Below, piece after piece: positions 1,788-61,910 of a DNA stretch of 62,517 bases. A program made the translations under genes and the position numbers. Source of the stretch: Candidatus Shapirobacteria bacterium (GTDB lineage Bacteria; Patescibacteriota; Microgenomatia; UBA12405; UBA6130); contig JALWDZ010000016.1 of the NCBI GenBank assembly GCA_027039485.1, positions 1 through 62,517 of the forward strand, given 5' to 3'. The notes under the pieces were generated by a model. That model was not told the origin of the DNA. It searched no databases and saw only the letters and a list, made by a program, of their open reading frames with translations. The stretch's first letter is position 1. Every line of letters starts with the position of its first letter.

Positions 1788-2102
1788 TGGAACTAGGAAC
1801 TAGGAGCTAGGAACTAGGAAAAATAAGCACTAAATCCCAAACCACAAATTTCAAACAAATTCTAATTACCAAAATCCTAAATCCTAAACTCTAAACAATG
1901 TTCAAATGACCAAAATTCAAATGTTCAAAACATTTTTGTCATCTTTCTTTTGTTTTGGTCATTTAGTCATTTGGTAATTTGGTTATTGTTTAGGATTTAG
2001 GTCATTAGGATTTAGGATTTGTTTGGTTATTGGTGCTTGCCTGCCTGCGCAGGCAGGGAATTTGGAATTTGCCCCGATTCCGCCAGCTGGCGGACGTCGG
2101 GG
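1788..2102. repeat. Long low-complexity imperfect hairpin element, copy A, with appended GC-rich hairpin modules
   Basis: The left arm (…aatcctaaatcctaaactctaaacaatgttcaaatgaccaaaattcaaatg…) is mirrored by the right arm (…catttggtaatttggttattgtttaggatttagg…). It begins with a 31-nt string (1788-1818) identical to 20505-20535. It ends with an 18-nt perfect palindrome cctgcctgcgcaggcagg (2040-2057) and the hairpin ccccga..ccgccagctggcgg..tcgggg (2072-2102). Confidence 0.75.
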
Positions 2103-2159: not shown

Positions 2160-3521
2160 ATGAAACGCATCTGGGTTGAACAAATAAAAGATCGCTTGGG
2201 CAAAAAAGTTCTCCTTAAGGGCTGGGTGATAGCCAAAAGGGACCACGGCGGGGTAGTTTTTTTAGATCTCCAAGACCGAAGCGGACAAGTCCAGCTGGTT
2301 GGCGGCAAAACCCTGAGCCAATACAATGAAAGCGATGTTTTAGCAGTTGTGGGGACAGTCAAAAAACGTGATCCGCGTTTTGTGAATCCTAAAATAACTA
2401 CCGGAAAGTATGAAATTGCTGTCGAGAAAATTGACCGTTTGGCAAAAAGCGAGCCGTTACCGTTTGATATCCGGGGTGATGGCTATGATATTAAAGAGGA
2501 GGTTCGCTTGCGTTATCGCTATTTGGATCTCCGCCGGCCCCGATTACGGCGCAATCTTCAATTGCGCCATCAGGTAGAACAGCTTTTTCGCCAGCAACTT
2601 TCGCAGCGGGATTTTTGGGAGATAGAGACTCCTTATTTAAGCAAGGCAACGCCAGAGGGAGCCCGGGATTTTTTGGTTCCGTCGCGCCTCCAGCCAGGTA
2701 AATTTTACGCCCTCCCCCAGTCGCCGCAGCAATATAAGCAGTTGTTGATGGTTGCCGGGGTGGAAAGATATTTTCAAATTGTACGTTGTTTTCGGGATGA
2801 GGATTTGCGAGCTGACCGCCAATTTGAATTTACCCAGGTAGATGTTGAGATGTCGTTTGTTACCCGCGATGATGTTTTGGCGACCATTGAAGAAGTAGTT
2901 GTGGCGGTGATGAAAGCTTTAGGGCGAAAGATTAGTCAAGTGCCATTCCCGCGCATTTCCTATCAAGAGGCAATGCGCCGTTTTGGCAGTGATAAATTTG
3001 ATTTGCGCAAGAATAAAAAAAGTGACGAACTGGCTTTTGCCTGGGTAGTTGATTTTCCTCTTTTCGAAAAGACCGAAGACCGAGATATTAGTCCGGTCCA
3101 TCATCCTTTTACCGCACCCCATCCTGAGGACATTCCTCTTTTAGATAAGCAGCCTTTACGGGTGCGTTCTTGGCAATACGACTTGGTTTGTAATGGCCAC
3201 GAAGTGGCGGGGGGAAGCATTCGAATTACTGATCCGCAATTGCAAGCCAAAATTTTTCGCATTTTAGGCCATTCCCAGAAAGAAATCCAAACTAAGTTTG
3301 GGCACCTTTTAAATGCTTTTCGTTATGGTGTTCCTCCTCATGGAGGCATTGCTTTTGGGCTGGATCGCTTATTGGCCATTTTGGCCGGCGAGGATAAAAT
3401 TCGCGAGGTTATTGCTTTTCCAATGACCGCTAAAGGGCGGACGGCAGTTATGGATGCCCCTTCGCCAGTTAGCCAAGCGCAACTCCGCGAGTTAGGGCTT
3501 CAATTAACTAAAAAGTCCTAA
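2160..3521 (+). CDS. aspS: Aspartyl-tRNA synthetase, bacterial-type class II core lacking the GAD insertion domain
   Basis: N-terminal OB fold; motif 2 FRDEDLRADRQFEFTQVDVEMSF; motif 3 GGIAFGLDRL. The start is taken as ATG 2160 (MKRIWVEQ); the track ORF opens at 2130. About 453 aa, against about 590 aa for GAD-containing bacterial AspRS. Confidence 0.9.
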   Translation: MKRIWVEQIKDRLGKKVLLKGWVIAKRDHGGVVFLDLQDRSGQVQLVGGKTLSQYNESDVLAVVGTVKKRDPRFVNPKITTGKYEIAVEKIDRLAKSEPLPFDIRGDGYDIKEEVRLRYRYLDLRRPRLRRNLQLRHQVEQLFRQQLSQRDFWEIETPYLSKATPEGARDFLVPSRLQPGKFYALPQSPQQYKQLLMVAGVERYFQIVRCFRDEDLRADRQFEFTQVDVEMSFVTRDDVLATIEEVVVAVMKALGRKISQVPFPRISYQEAMRRFGSDKFDLRKNKKSDELAFAWVVDFPLFEKTEDRDISPVHHPFTAPHPEDIPLLDKQPLRVRSWQYDLVCNGHEVAGGSIRITDPQLQAKIFRILGHSQKEIQTKFGHLLNAFRYGVPPHGGIAFGLDRLLAILAGEDKIREVIAFPMTAKGRTAVMDAPSPVSQAQLRELGLQLTKKS

Positions 3522-14355: not shown

Positions 14356-14431
14356 TGGTGACCCCACCCGGATTCGAACCGGGGTTTTCGCCGTGAGAGG
14401 GCGATGTCCTAAACCGCTAGACGATGGGGCC
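14356..14431 (-). tRNA. tRNA-Glu (anticodon CUC), CCA encoded
   Basis: Manual cloverleaf: acceptor GGCCCCA/TGGGGTC, D stem GTCT/GGAC, anticodon arm TCGCC-CTCTCAC-GGCGA, 4-nt variable loop, T arm CCCGG-TTCGAAT-CCGGG, discriminator A, then CCA. 76 nt. Confidence 0.9.
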
Positions 14432-14486: not shown

Positions 14487-14731
14487 GGAGCTAGGAATAA
14501 TAAATCCTAAATCCTAATGACCAAAATCCTAAACAAATCCAAAATTCAAATGATCAAATAACCAAAACAAAGGAAAAAGATAAAGAAAAAGAAATGTTTT
14601 GAACATTTGAATTTTGGTCATTTGGTAATTGTTTAGAATTTAGGATTTAGGATTTTGGTAATTAGAATTTATTTGTAATTTGGTGCTTGGAATTTGGAAT
14701 TTTCCTGTGTAGGCAGGGAATTTGGGATTTT
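14487..14731. repeat. Long low-complexity hairpin element, copy B
   Basis: aaatcctaaatcctaatgaccaaaatcctaaacaaatccaaaattcaaatg… is mirrored by …catttgaattttggtcatttggtaattgtttagaatttaggatttagg. About 90% identical to copy D over roughly 70 nt by eye. Ends with cctgtgtaggcaggg. Confidence 0.75.
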
Positions 14732-20456: not shown

Positions 20457-20780
20457 AAAGTTTAAGTGAAAAGTGAAAAAGAAGTTAAAGTGAAAAGTTT
20501 AAAATGGAACTAGGAACTAGGAGCTAGGAACTAGGTTAGAGGAACTTGGAACTTGGTTAGGGTATCAGAGTATCAGGTTAACTTTCTCTGTTCTTCTGAT
20601 CTCTGATTCTCTTTCCCTGATTACCTGGTTCTTCCTGATATTCTACAATTTAATTTTTTTCTTACTGAGTTCTGAGTTCTAAGTTCTGAATGTTTAGGAT
20701 TTGGGTCATTAGGATTTAGGATTTGCCTGCCCCTACCGAAAGGGGGTTTGTAATTTGTGATTTGTGATTTGGAATTTTTT
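20457..20780. repeat. Nested low-complexity palindromic element, copy C (microsatellite-like arms)
   Basis: It starts at the serS stop. Blocks of short tandem units (aagtgaaaag; ggaactag; ggaacttg; gtatcag) are answered downstream by ctgat-, gagttct- and ttaggat-type units. It shares an exact 31-mer (20505-20535) with copy A. Confidence 0.7.
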
Positions 20781-20831
20781 TTGGAGGGATGCTTTGGAAT
20801 GGTGAGGAATAGGAACAGTGTATAATTGAAT

Positions 20832-36974: not shown

Positions 36975-37047
36975 CGGGGATTGGCGCAATTGGTAGCGCG
37001 CACGATTCGGGTTCGTGAGGCTGGCGGTTCGAATCCGCCATCCCCGA
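36975..37047 (+). tRNA. tRNA-Pro (anticodon CGG), CCA not encoded
   Basis: Manual cloverleaf: acceptor CGGGGAT/ATCCCCG, D arm GCGC-AATTGGTA-GCGC, anticodon arm CACGA-TTCGGGT-TCGTG (G37 after G36), T arm GGCGG-TTCGAAT-CCGCC, discriminator A. Confidence 0.9.
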
Positions 37048-37062
37048 CTAGAAATATATACC

Positions 37063-37301
37063 TTAAATTCCAAATTTCAAGCACCAAATCACAAACCTGC
37101 CCCGACGTAATGTCGGGGCAAATCCTAAATCCTAATGACCCAAATCCTAAACAAATCCAAATTATCTAATGATCAAATGACCAAAACAAAAGAAAGATAA
37201 TAAAGATGTTTTGAACATTTGAATTTTGAACATTTGATATTGTTTAGGATTTAGAATTTTGGTAATTAGAATTTGCCTGTCCCGACGTTCGTCGGGGCAG
37301 G
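37063..37301. repeat. Long low-complexity hairpin element, copy D, flanked by CCCCGACG…CGTCGGGG hairpins
   Basis: cctgccccgacgtaatgtcggggca, then aatcctaaatcctaatgacccaaatcctaaacaaatcc… mirrored by …tgaacatttgatattgtttaggatttagaattttgg, then cctgtcccgacgttcgtcggggcagg. The left end is the reverse complement of the right end of copy B. Confidence 0.75.
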
Positions 37302-37319
37302 TGTTATACTTGCTTGACG

Positions 37320-58811: not shown

Positions 58812-59806
58812 AAACAAAGATTGCGATTATTCTCCTGTCGTACAATGCCGAACGGTTTCTCGAAAAAGCCCTATTTTCTTTTCTGGCCCAATTTTCTCCC
58901 CAGCTTTGGCAAAAATTGCCAGAGGTGGAATGGCGCCAGAAGATAAAAATGCCCCAATGGCCGCTAAAGCATGAGGTGACTTTGGTAGTGATCGATAATG
59001 CTTCCCAAGATGGGTCGGTTCTCGTTGCCCAACGGGCCCAAAAATTGGCTGAGGTGATAAAGGGGGCTAACATTCACCTTATTCGAAATGCGGCCAATTT
59101 AGGCTTTGCTGCCGGTAATAATGTTGGCATTAATTGGGCTTTGCGGCAAGGTTTTGAATATATTGGCCTTCTTAATAATGATGTTTTGGTGGGCAACCGT
59201 TTTTGGGAGCCGCTAGTCCAATTTTTAGCTAAGCATCGGCGAGCAGGGGTGGCGACTACTAAGATATTTTTTGCTCCCGGTTATGAATACCAACAAAAAT
59301 ATCGCTCCGCCGAAAAAGGTCGAGTTGTTTGGGCGGTGGGGGGCAAAATTGACTGGGCCAATGTGGTGGGAACCAATAGGGGAGTGGATGAAGTTGATAA
59401 GGGGCAATACGAGAGGCCAGCCGAGGTCGATGTTGCCAGCGGCTGTTTGCTTTTAGCAAAGAGAGAGGTTTGGAAAAAAGTTGGGCTTTTAGATAATCGT
59501 TACTTTATGTACTACGAGGATGCCGATTGGTCGCAACGAGTTAAGCGGCAGGGCTGGCAGGTCTGGTACGTACCTGGGGGCGTGATTTGGCATTTTAATG
59601 CTGGCTCATCCCAGGTGGGGGGATCCTTGCAGGATTATTTTATAACCCGGAATCGACTGCTTTTTGGCATGCGTTGGGCGCCTTGGCGGGCAAAGTTGGC
59701 CCTTTTGCGGGAAAGTGTCCGCCTACTGTTCTCGGGGCGGGAATGGCAACGGAGGGGAATTAGGGATTTTTATCTCCGCCGTTTTGGCCGGGGGAGTTGG
59801 AGATAA
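58808..59806 (+). CDS. GT2 glycosyltransferase (rhamnosyltransferase-like)
   Basis: IAIILLSYNAE, VIDNASQDGS, GFAAGNN, LLNNDV, YYEDADW. Confidence 0.8.
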   Translation: MKTKIAIILLSYNAERFLEKALFSFLAQFSPQLWQKLPEVEWRQKIKMPQWPLKHEVTLVVIDNASQDGSVLVAQRAQKLAEVIKGANIHLIRNAANLGFAAGNNVGINWALRQGFEYIGLLNNDVLVGNRFWEPLVQFLAKHRRAGVATTKIFFAPGYEYQQKYRSAEKGRVVWAVGGKIDWANVVGTNRGVDEVDKGQYERPAEVDVASGCLLLAKREVWKKVGLLDNRYFMYYEDADWSQRVKRQGWQVWYVPGGVIWHFNAGSSQVGGSLQDYFITRNRLLFGMRWAPWRAKLALLRESVRLLFSGREWQRRGIRDFYLRRFGRGSWR

Positions 59807-60212
59807 GATATTTTTGAATATGCTGAACAAATTGAGAAAGATCGGCTAGTTTCTTGTCCAAATCGTTATAAGCAAGCTGATAGTCGATTTGAGTGTATTC
59901 GTGGACAAGGATATTTCTTAGCCCCACAGCTTTTCCTAATTGTTTTGCCAATTGGTAGGGAATAATATTCTGCTTGGCTAGTAGCTGAAACAAGGCAGCA
60001 GAGGTTTCTGCCGGGCCCAATTTTTCAGTAGCTACAATATGGGCGGCAATATCAATACATGTTTCGATTGCTTTTTGCATTCGTCGATCGACAAGATCCC
60101 GAATGTCTTCGTCGCCGGTAATCATTTCCATGGTTAGGTCCATATTTTTTAGTTTTCTAATTGAATGTTCGAGGTTTTCTAGGTAGCGATAAATGATATT
60201 TTTATTGACCAT
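59760..60212 (-). CDS. HEPN/DUF86 toxin (HepT-type)
   Basis: Rx4H motif in GLRNILVHEY. 150 aa. Overlaps the upstream MNT gene by 11 nt. Confidence 0.8.
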   Translation of the reverse strand: MVNKNIIYRYLENLEHSIRKLKNMDLTMEMITGDEDIRDLVDRRMQKAIETCIDIAAHIVATEKLGPAETSAALFQLLAKQNIIPYQLAKQLGKAVGLRNILVHEYTQIDYQLAYNDLDKKLADLSQFVQHIQKYLISNSPGQNGGDKNP

Positions 60213-60627
60213 AAGTACCTTCTTTGAGCCGCTGGTTTAAATAATGATGAAAGATATCACGCAAATGTTGACTATCGTAATAAAGTTTCATAATTCGTGT
60301 TTCTAACTGGATCCGCTCTGTTTGGTTGCGGGCAAAAAGGAGCTTTCCTTTTAGTAATTGGAAAAGGAAGAGGGGGTCAGTATCTTGAAGATTAGCAATT
60401 CTAAGATCAAGATTGGGATGGCGAACAAACTGACTAATCTTTTGATAAAGGGAACCAAAAGAACGGGGGTCAAAATTTTTGTCGACCAACAAAACGATGT
60501 CGAGGTCGCTGTCATTACGCTCTCGTTTTTCGGCTACCGAGCCGATGAAATAAGCGGCCAAAACGCTGGGATAGTTTTGAAGGACGCCCCCAAGAGCTTT
60601 TTGGTTAATAATCCTATTGACTCCCAT
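60202..60627 (-). CDS. Nucleotidyltransferase antitoxin (MntA-type)
   Basis: GSVAEKRERNDSDLDIVLL (GSxxx…DxD). 141 aa. Confidence 0.8.
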   Translation of the reverse strand: MGVNRIINQKALGGVLQNYPSVLAAYFIGSVAEKRERNDSDLDIVLLVDKNFDPRSFGSLYQKISQFVRHPNLDLRIANLQDTDPLFLFQLLKGKLLFARNQTERIQLETRIMKLYYDSQHLRDIFHHYLNQRLKEGTYGQ

Positions 60628-60682: not shown

Positions 60683-61447
60683 GTGAGATTGAGCGTAATA
60701 ATTATTGCCAAAAATGAAGAAAAGCTAATTGGGGATGCTATTCGCTCGGCTAAATTTGCTGACGAGGTCATTGTCATTGATACCGGTTCCAGCGACAAAA
60801 CTCCATTGATAGCTAAAAAATTAGGCGCGCGGGTAATTAAAATGCCCAGCCAGAAATTAGCCTTTGCGCATTGGCGGACTGAGGCAATTAAAAAGGCAAA
60901 GGGCGCCTGGATTTTTTATCTTGATGCTGACGAACGGATTACGCCGAAATTGAGAAATGCAATTCTAAAGATTATAAAGCAACCCCCTGAAAAAAATGTG
61001 GTTGCTTACGCTGTTCCCAGAAAAAATTATTATTTGGGCCGCCGGGTGCGTTGGGGAGGTTCTTGGCCAGATTATGTTAAGCGCTTGTTTTGGAAAGAAG
61101 CGTTAAAAAAGTGGTCGGGCAAACTTCACGAAGAGCCTGTTTTCGAAGGCAAATTAGAAATTTTGCCAGCTCCGTTAAAACACTATACCCATCGCGATTT
61201 GACTTCGATGGTTGCCAAAACAATTGCCTGGTCCCGGTTAGAAGCCGAGGAATTATACCGGGCCCATCATCCGCCGGTGACTTGGTGGCGGATTTTAAGA
61301 ATAATGTTAACCGAATTATGGCAGCGGGGCATTAAGCAACAAGGTTTTCGCGATGGGACGGTTGGGGTAATTGAGGTAATTTTTCAAATGTTCAGCCGTT
61401 TTGTTACCTATGCCCGATTATGGGAGAAGCAAAATTCTAAATCCTAA
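60683..61447 (+). CDS. GT2 glycosyltransferase
   Basis: LSVIIIAKNEE, VIDTGSSDKT, YLDADE. GTG start 6 nt after TGtTAAACT (60668-60676). The last codons and the stop lie inside the hairpin-element arm. Confidence 0.75.
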   Translation: MRLSVIIIAKNEEKLIGDAIRSAKFADEVIVIDTGSSDKTPLIAKKLGARVIKMPSQKLAFAHWRTEAIKKAKGAWIFYLDADERITPKLRNAILKIIKQPPEKNVVAYAVPRKNYYLGRRVRWGGSWPDYVKRLFWKEALKKWSGKLHEEPVFEGKLEILPAPLKHYTHRDLTSMVAKTIAWSRLEAEELYRAHHPPVTWWRILRIMLTELWQRGIKQQGFRDGTVGVIEVIFQMFSRFVTYARLWEKQNSKS

Positions 61448-61903
61448 TTACCTAAATCCTAAACAATGACCAAATACCAAAATTCCAAACAATATAATTT
61501 AGAAGAGAGGACTTTTATTTTTGCCCAACAAGTAAGGAAGTTTGTTTCGCAGATTAAGAAGGATTTTGGGGTTATCGATGATATCAAACAATTGGTTAGA
61601 TCATCAGGCTCGGTAGCGGCTAATTACATTGAAGCTAATGAAGCTTTAAGTAAGAAAGATTTTGTGCATAGAATCAAAATTTGTCGCAAAGAAGCTAAAG
61701 AGACTAAGCTATGGCTTAAACTATTACGGCTTTCTTCATCCATGGAGGAAAAAGAAAGAGAGAGGCTAATAGGGGAAGTTACTGAATTGATGAAAATTTT
61801 TGGCGCCATATTGGAAAAATGTCGCTATAATTAGTTTAGAACATTAGAAAATTTGAAATTTGGTTATTGTTTAGAAAATTAGAATTTAGAGATTAGGATT
61901 TTT
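61432..61903. mobile_element. Full-length low-complexity hairpin element, copy E, carrying the four-helix-bundle gene in its loop
   Basis: The left arm attctaaatcctaattacctaaatcctaaacaatgaccaaatacc and the right arm gaaatttggttattgtttagaaaattagaatttagagattaggattt are homologous to the arms of copies A, B and D. Mobility is not demonstrated. Confidence 0.5.
61466..61834 (+). CDS. Four-helix-bundle protein (23S rRNA intervening-sequence protein family)
   Basis: LEERTFIFAQQVRKF…LVRSSGSVAANYIEANEALSKKDFVHRIKICRKEAKETKLWLKLL matches the hallmark motifs of this family. 122 aa. Confidence 0.85.
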   Translation: MTKYQNSKQYNLEERTFIFAQQVRKFVSQIKKDFGVIDDIKQLVRSSGSVAANYIEANEALSKKDFVHRIKICRKEAKETKLWLKLLRLSSSMEEKERERLIGEVTELMKIFGAILEKCRYN

Positions 61904-61910
61904 GCCTTTG

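Follow-up and report, generated by a model that had tools for sequence, protein, structure and literature searches.

A probable horizontally moving hairpin element of the rRNA intervening-sequence type, with and without its four-helix-bundle gene, in a Candidatus Shapirobacteria contig

We analysed a 62.5 kb stretch of DNA from Candidatus Shapirobacteria (contig JALWDZ010000016.1, positions 1 to 62,517; hereafter the window) together with related loci from other genomes and metagenomes, which carry labels of the form L093. Positions 61431-61903 of the window most likely hold one copy of a widespread, horizontally moving hairpin element of the intervening-sequence (IVS) type known from ribosomal RNA (rRNA) genes, a family that occurs in forms with and without an open reading frame (ORF). 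We give this reading a probability of roughly 0.8. The original prediction, made from the letters of the window alone, had proposed an IVS-like hairpin family living outside rRNA, and four observations now support it: the inverted arms around the gene, an empty site in relatives, units that recur across phyla and relatives embedded in rRNA genes.

The element is a discrete unit of ~470 nt between the glycosyltransferase genes GT2 and GT4, and is made up of three parts.

61431..61465, plus strand: outer part of the 5' arm, an inverted repeat of CTAAAnn heptads, placed by the nhmmer 5'-arm match at 61431-61494 and by the empty-site comparison
61466..61834, plus strand: four-helix-bundle gene of 122 aa, S23p / 23S rRNA IVS protein / Avd-like
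61835..61903, plus strand: 3' arm, mirror of the 5' arm in nnTTTAG heptads; profile match at 61822-61906

The ORF is recognised both by PF05635 (23S_rRNA_IVP; E 9e-15, 55.2 bits against a cutoff of 33.8) and by TIGR02436 (“four helix bundle protein”; E 9e-20, 70.9 bits against a cutoff of 24), which confirms its predicted position, strand and length. The arms that had been described around it are present as inverted repeats of 59 nt (61431-61489 and 61844-61902) with 71% complementarity, and the segment folds with z = -4.9 against dinucleotide shuffles, as complementary ends that enclose an insert. The 5' arm is shared with coding sequence on both of its sides, again as first described. Codons 1-10 of the ORF (61466-61495), beginning with ATGACCAAATACCAAAATTCCAAACAA, double as the inner 5' arm, and the last codons and stop (61445-61447) of GT2 (60683..61447) are supplied by the arm: GT2 ends in ...WEKQNSKS* in the window and in ...WEMQQNDC* in a relative with an empty site. 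At the other end, 7 nt lie between the 3' arm and the new ATG of GT4 (61911). The arms contain no promoter-like or terminator-like sites. An Rfam scan of the window returned two tRNAs only and no rRNA gene, in agreement with the original prediction, and thus places the element outside rRNA. Membership of a defence system was considered and rejected, as PADLOC gives no match.

The same combination of gene and arms recurs far beyond this genome, in dozens of phyla. Homologues with 55-70% aa identity form at least 7,997 clusters at 90% identity and very few clusters at 50%, with 10 representatives at E<=1e-30. A genome scan gave 80 loci, and nearly all of their ORFs are flanked by the same arms, so the association of this ORF with such arms holds in other genomes as well. 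The hosts are Gammaproteobacteria, Saccharibacteria and many other lineages of the candidate phyla radiation (CPR), Desulfobacterota, Chlorobiaceae, Planctomycetota, Chloroflexota, Verrucomicrobiota, Bacteroidota, Nitrospirota and Brocadia, and the gene is also carried by archaea of the ANME-1 group (Methanophagales). We used all-against-all blastn of the elements as a test for a discrete unit. Across phyla, elements share 78-92% nt identity, and the similarity spans from 43-48 nt before the ATG to 62-66 nt after the stop codon. The elements of a Dehalococcoidales (L030) and a Thermodesulfobacteriota genome (L033) are 92% identical over 472 nt; those of an ANME-1 Methanophagales archaeon (L006, 2953-3428) and a Desulfobacteraceae bacterium (L026) are 87.6% identical over 477 nt, a likeness that suggests recent transfer between the two lineages. 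ANME-1 and Desulfobacteraceae lineages are known as syntrophic partners. The start codon of the L026 copy reads AGG, so that this copy may be decaying. Taken together, the comparisons support a discrete unit that moves horizontally.

The elements are placed in a regular way. Among ~80 of them, the upstream neighbour lies on the same strand in 67 cases versus 9 (88%) and the downstream neighbour in 62 versus 10, and the 5' end of the element is usually within a few nt of the upstream stop codon. 23S motifs occur at none of 91 ORF-bearing loci, and insertion at the tip of an rRNA helix is therefore not a feature of these copies. Some loci depart from the standard layout. In L022 (ORF 2501-2863, 3' arm 3393-3460) and L025 (ORF 2501-2854, 3' arm 3290-3363), ~450-530 nt of extra sequence lie between the ORF and the 3' arm; in L022 this segment opens with an ATG directly after the ORF stop, and the loop may carry additional cargo in both. 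On the Pirellulales contig L048, a second pair of 5' and 3' arms (2277-2762), ~340 nt apart and 1.7 kb from the first element, is built from the other unit type (CGAAA versus CTAAA) and probably marks a second ORF-bearing element.

The GT2-GT4 junction is filled in some relatives of the window and empty in others, which provides the evidence of mobility that the original prediction had called for. GT2 shares 87% aa identity with the window in L093 and L094 and 75% in L095, and these loci are filled; it shares 71% in L096 and L097, which have no element and whose two genes overlap by 28 nt, the end of GT2 reaching beyond the start of GT4. A new GT4 start, ATGaRAkCTTTAAT, is common to the filled genomes and indicates an old insertion. 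The element of L095 stands apart: its protein is 58% identical to that of the window, whereas GT2 is 75% identical, its arms are of the CCAAA type where the window has CTAAA, and archaeal copies resemble the window's element at least as much as it does. These differences suggest that one element was replaced by another at the same site. The public call of the four-helix gene in L093 (4228-4659) starts 63 nt early, giving 143 aa, and reaches across the arm into the end of GT2, an example of gene callers being misled by arm sequence. The same string of glycosyltransferase genes also contains a HepT-like / MNT (Polbeta nucleotidyltransferase) toxin-antitoxin pair (59760-60627, minus strand), which is present in the window, L093 and L094 and absent from L095, with a PMT_2 gene instead in L096. 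From this distribution, the pair is a second variable insertion at the locus.

Three further places in the window had been named as empty copies of the element. To score them independently, we took 58 elements from other genomes, with the window excluded, and turned their 5' and 3' arms into nhmmer profiles. Over the 62.5 kb, these profiles match (E 1e-4 to 3e-7) at four places only: 1870-2021, 14500-14705, 37110-37277 and 61431-61906. The copies, oriented by their start-codon remnant, and one tentative further member are the following.

1852..2025, plus strand: ORF-less copy 1, 5' arm with ATGACCAAAATTCAAATGTTCAAAAC, a 19-nt loop and the 3' arm; z -8.9
14499..14673, minus strand: ORF-less copy 2, with the ATGACC-bearing arm on the minus strand; z -4.9
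37113..37281, probably minus strand: ORF-less copy 3, between two GC-rich mini-hairpins; z -9.6
20693..20725, no strand assigned: solitary 3'-arm-like fragment, tttaggatttgggtcattaggatttaggattt, a tentative member that the profiles do not reach at E<1e-3

The three ORF-less copies are colinear at 84-87% identity, including their 19-27-nt loops. Each reads as a 5' arm (...CTAAACAAT..CAAATGACCAAAATTCAAATGTTCAAAAC), a loop and a 3' arm (GTTTTGGTCATTTG...TTGTTTAGGATTTAGG), which are the arms of the ORF-bearing element without the gene body. Chance resemblance of low-complexity sequence is ruled out by this colinearity and by profiles from other genomes that find exactly four sites. Long hairpins and colinear homology are thus found at the three places as predicted; the cores are narrower than the spans first given, the remainder being other small repeats. 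All three copies retain the ATGACC start and first codons and then jump to the 3' arm. This remnant gives the direction of change, from ORF-bearing to ORF-less, and fits ORF-less copies that arose by internal deletion and multiplied afterwards. The proposed analogy with an autonomous element and its miniature inverted-repeat transposable element (MITE) derivatives stands in part: the ORF-less copies look like internal-deletion derivatives that share terminal inverted repeats, but “autonomous” is an analogy only.

Gene-less copies are also abundant elsewhere. Extra arm-only copies lie within 2.5 kb at 24 of the 80 loci, and ORF-bearing and ORF-less copies of one locus have their unit type in common in 27 of 35 cases. 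A 21-nt core taken from the ORF-less copies of the window, CAAAATTCAAATGTTCAAAAC, is matched exactly at least 120 times in metagenome contigs of the Joint Genome Institute (JGI). Among the matches listed (the first 80 loci), 65 of 82 are clear of contig ends and lack a four-helix ORF within 200 nt, and only one adjoins such an ORF; many of the metagenomic arm-only copies keep ATGACC. Six core-bearing hairpins among these matches are located inside rRNA genes, as confirmed by Rfam models.

L134: 16S, tip of the helix between the ~1100 and ~1190 motifs
L144: 23S, near the 3' end
L165, L167 and L202: 23S, just 5' of the ~1780 motif
L208: 23S

Each of the six caps a GC-rich extension stem, folds near-continuously and is 72-78% identical to the window copies. 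They connect the intergenic hairpins directly with IVSs and so establish the suspected link to the intervening sequences of rRNA. ORFs of the 23S_rRNA_IVP family have been reported in insertions of CPR 16S and 23S genes (PMC11270868).

Around the ORF-less copies of the window we observed other small repeats and two tRNA genes. Copy 1 is nested among further small repeats (1773-2129). Copy 2 lies 68 nt past the coordinate end, on the tRNA 5' side, of tRNA-Glu (14356-14431, minus strand), and copy 3 lies 65 nt after the 3' end of tRNA-Pro (36975-37048, plus strand). A second palindrome family of small GC-rich hairpins, cctgccccgacg...cgtcggggcagg and variants, flanks the heptad-arm hairpins on both sides or lies close to them.

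37096-37120, 37276-37302, 2039-2058, 2071-2103, 14703-14719 and 20723-20745: GC-rich small palindromes

Mini-hairpins similar to these are inserted within the arms of L020, L056, L079, L145 and L213, and GC-rich stems form the base of the rRNA-embedded copies L165, L202 and L208. A composite low-complexity spacer at 20457-20825, built from the units gtgaaaa, ggaactagg and ctgagtt, folds only weakly as a whole (z -1.4) and has the solitary arm-like fragment at its end. Its ggaactagg unit is found again next to ORF-less copies 1 and 2 (1790-1818 and 14487-14495).

The arms are arrays of 7-nt units, C-N-A-A-A-n-n on the 5' side and its mirror on the 3' side, where a given element uses one base, T, G or C, for N (CTAAA, CGAAA and CCAAA types). 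Typical lengths are ~45 nt for the 5' arm and ~65 nt for the 3' arm. Across loci, the 5' consensus is AAAT.CgAAa..CgAAat.CgAAAt.CgAAACAAAttcaAATGACc.AAat.cAAAAttCaAAACa and the 3' consensus gtTTt...aTTtgaATTTtGaatTTGTTTcGgATTTcGa.aTTcGaATTTaGaATTTaa, and the last 5' unit lies exactly 14 nt (two units) ahead of the ATG in 44 of 65 elements. We measured pairing in an anchored, ungapped register across elements. Five of the seven unit positions pair in 77-100% of elements and the two variable ones in only 20-50%; over four successive units, position N is divided about equally between elements with a T:A pair and elements with G:C. Mean Watson-Crick pairing is 0.670; exchanging the 3' arms between loci lowers it to 0.640 +/- 0.009, with 0 of 1000 exchanges attaining 0.670, and a register shift of 1-3 nt lowers it to 0.22-0.39. 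Unit type is nearly pure within an element, the minor type accounting for 0.095 of units in ORF-bearing and 0.171 in ORF-less copies (p 0.015). With a Spearman coefficient of 0.17 (p 0.18), host GC content was rejected as the cause of T-type versus G-type arms. For 36 ORF-less hairpins, RNAalifold recovers an 8-bp anchor helix only, and 30 outer pairs of these hairpins are 77.5% paired versus 76.4% after shuffling (42 of 500 shuffles reach it). Judged by these alignments, arm-to-arm co-evolution beyond unit type is absent. The arms are palindromic because both follow one family-wide unit consensus in mirror orientation, which guarantees ~5/7 pairing in any heptad register. This pattern fits either a “slippery zipper” stem of RNA or DNA that tolerates gain and loss of units, or inverted arrays of protein sites. 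Simple-repeat arms also occur in a different subfamily. On the Nostoc flagelliforme plasmid pNFSY05 (L098), a 37%-identical homologue has (AATTCAAA)x4 upstream (1410-1440) and (TTTGAATT)x4 downstream (1866-1900), so inverted arms of simple repeats may be general for the wider protein family; the L098 repeat is also found upstream of jamI in Lyngbya (PMC2799420).

Several results weigh against our reading of the element as a horizontally moving IVS-type hairpin. We found no known transposase, integrase or reverse transcriptase in or beside the element. The scan of relatives returned the empty site and the extra copies that had been anticipated, but no target-site duplication is visible at the boundaries of near-identical copies, where the flanks are A/T-rich, and the divergence between filled and empty sites (71-75% aa) is too great for an exact junction. 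Planctomycetota carry the element at a single conserved locus whose flanks are homologous, which indicates that some copies are long-term residents and not active movers. Searches of IMG/VR viral contigs gave no relatives, leaving phage carriage unsupported, and plasmids gave only the distant Nostoc homologues at 37% identity. Apart from their common consensus, the arms themselves bear no mark of a selected RNA stem: mismatches compatible with G-U pairing are not enriched on the sense strand (207 versus 237), the sense and antisense strands fold equally well, and the 5' arm of an element is matched as well by 3' arms from others of its type as by its own. Finally, to our knowledge archaea mostly lack RNase III, so processing could not be the same in every host.

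The symmetry of the arms is what an alternative centred on DNA would expect. Here the arms would be terminal inverted repeats of the transposon type, double-stranded sites for a protein, and the element would move by cutting or copying of DNA with the RNA hairpin as an incidental product. We regard this as possible, if somewhat doubtful. G-U mismatches without strand asymmetry and equal folding energies on both strands agree with it, and so do arms that have nothing but their unit type in common, as if one protein read a duplex motif, and unit types that are nearly pure per element and not explained by host GC. On the other side, the copies in 16S and 23S genes must fold as extensions of RNA helices for the ribosome to assemble, a DNA transposon has no need of such strong sense co-orientation, no target-site duplication is visible at the boundaries, and the protein has no known nuclease or recombinase fold.

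That protein is the sole gene of the element, a 122-aa helical bundle without a match to any recombinase or nuclease family. An AlphaFold2 (AF2) model (mean predicted local distance difference test, pLDDT, of 91) has helices at residues 12-28, 34-58, 63-86 and 92-121, and the arm-encoded residues 1-10 are disordered; the corresponding codons thus seem constrained by the nucleic acid and not by the protein fold. The window protein matches Protein Data Bank entry 2rld at E 7e-18. In a Foldseek search, the best hits to the model are the S23-family pentamers 2rld and 2gsc, followed by Avd (4dwl, 8ub7), a protein of diversity-generating retroelements; TM scores of 0.7-0.8 for 2rld, 2gsc and 4dwl confirm the four-helix-bundle fold. 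The 2rld structure has five chains, 2gsc is a homopentamer (PMC4990558) and PF05635 has been linked to Avd in the literature (PMC10053308). By analogy with these solved relatives, the protein is probably a pentameric nucleic-acid-binding ring, which we offer as speculation. The ratio of nonsynonymous to synonymous substitution (dN/dS) is 0.05-0.13 in 10 of 11 measurable pairs and 0.32 in the remaining one, and it is 0.05 against L093; by this measure, purifying selection on the gene is strong. The four-helix protein of the window is 96% identical to that of L093, and the neighbouring GT2 87%. The arms of the two copies are ~98% identical (about one difference each plus one lost heptad, caaattc before the ATG, which L093 retains and the window copy has lost) while synonymous sites of the ORF differ at a proportion (pS) of 0.35, so that on this comparison the arms are kept by selection as well as the gene.

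This coupling of gene and arms bears on a second alternative, that the arm-only hairpin is the primary entity, a palindrome resembling repetitive extragenic palindromes (REP) or MITEs that is moved in trans by an unrelated enzyme or spread by recombination, with the four-helix gene as a passenger. The idea draws on the numbers, as ORF-less copies far outnumber ORF-bearing ones (the 65 of 82 listed matches above, with one adjoining the ORF), on the other cargo that sometimes lies between the arms (L022, L025, L117, L146), and on L095, where a different element (58% aa, CCAAA arms, next to a GT2 at 75%) suggests replacement of a cassette via the arms. We nevertheless judge it unlikely. In practically every copy, whatever the phylum, the arm makes up the start codon and first ~10 codons; ORF-less copies, some of them in rRNA genes, retain ATGACC, which argues that the ORF-bearing form came first; and the protein is under strong purifying selection wherever it is found. 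That the gene is instead an ordinary, vertically inherited host gene with structured untranslated regions, and the hairpins unrelated low-complexity spacers, is scarcely credible: the single conserved planctomycete locus with homologous flanks and the low-complexity spacers of different units in the window would agree with it, but it is contradicted by 88-92% nt identity with sharp boundaries across phyla and domains, by the empty orthologous site in a relative, by arm profiles from other genomes that select exactly four sites in the window and by copies inside rRNA genes.

We therefore retain the reading of a horizontally moving IVS-type hairpin, for which the following mechanism can be proposed. 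The element would have no promoter of its own and would be transcribed in sense by read-through from a host gene, as suggested by its sense co-orientation with neighbouring genes together with the lack of promoters and terminators in its arms; IVSs inside rRNA operons are transcribed in this way. In the transcript, the arms would zip into a long imperfect helix, and with five of seven positions pairing in any heptad register, gains and losses of units would be tolerated. The helix would place the ORF in a loop and rejoin the flanking host RNA, which is the geometry of an rRNA intervening sequence, and the ORF-less copies would be non-autonomous derivatives. More speculatively, the protein may recognise the heptad arrays and help to maintain or spread the element. 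An extension of this idea, in which the protein is a mobility or maintenance factor that reads its cognate arms, and the elements form a transposase-free class that targets hairpin tips, in rRNA and operon transcripts of bacteria and archaea, possibly through an RNA intermediate with a reverse transcriptase that the Avd-like protein brings in to act in trans, strikes us as improbable.

Three classes of known systems invite comparison. Like the elements described here, transposons with their MITEs, REPIN/RAYT, Correia and ERIC sequences and the Rickettsia palindromic elements have inverted ends, an intergenic location and co-transcription with host genes. This class likewise combines a long gene-bearing form with many short, internally deleted hairpins and shows nesting with other small palindromes. 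In contrast to it, we find no transposase or RAYT-type gene and detect no target-site duplication; the arms are tandem arrays of short units, the hosts range over bacterial phyla and archaea, and some copies sit in rRNA helices. The second class is represented by Avd of diversity-generating retroelements (4dwl, 8ub7), which has the same four-helix fold and belongs to the same superfamily (PMC10053308), and which is a pentameric scaffold that binds nucleic acid and reverse transcriptase and acts on RNA with pairing flanks. Sequence identity to Avd is only ~14%, and unlike in Avd systems, there is no reverse transcriptase or template/variable repeat nearby, the neighbours being glycosyltransferases and the HepT/MNT pair. 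The elements place the large “stand-alone” branch of this superfamily in a context.

The third class is the rRNA IVSs with an S23p ORF, whose origin, mode of spread and protein role have been a puzzle since the early 1990s (PMC4990558). They have complementary ends, are cut by RNase III and have long been suspected of being mobile; excision by RNase III is known for IVSs of Coxiella, Leptospira and Salmonella (PMC4990558). As in the 23S IVSs of Leptospira, Coxiella burnetii, Xanthomonas and Brucella and in the 16S and 23S insertions of CPR bacteria, a sense ORF of the same S23p/PF05635 family lies in a stem-loop. In both, the ORF has a poor or absent Shine-Dalgarno sequence and ORF-less forms exist, and the distribution is patchy with signs of horizontal transfer and suspected selfishness (PMC4990558, PMC11270868). 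Unlike these IVSs, the window copy and its ~80 relatives lie between protein-coding genes, the arms are 45-70-nt arrays of a conserved 7-nt unit that recurs from phylum to phylum where the IVSs have a lineage-specific 28-bp stem, and the start codon and first ~10 codons belong to the arm. In the open-access literature we found no description of heptad-unit arms around four-helix-bundle genes, of a mainly extra-ribosomal, operon-embedded location, of a sharply bounded unit of ~470 nt that has spread across domains, or of abundant arm-only derivatives that link intergenic and rRNA copies. In practice, low-complexity hairpins of this kind can confuse gene calling, repeat and CRISPR finders and rRNA annotation, and the arm that supplies a host stop codon and the over-extended ORF call in L093 illustrate the hazard for gene calling. 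In summary, rRNA genes appear to be just one of the habitats of a far larger, sharply defined element family, whose members have conserved heptad-unit arms in common, live mostly between protein-coding genes, cross the borders of phyla and domains, and shed gene-less hairpins.

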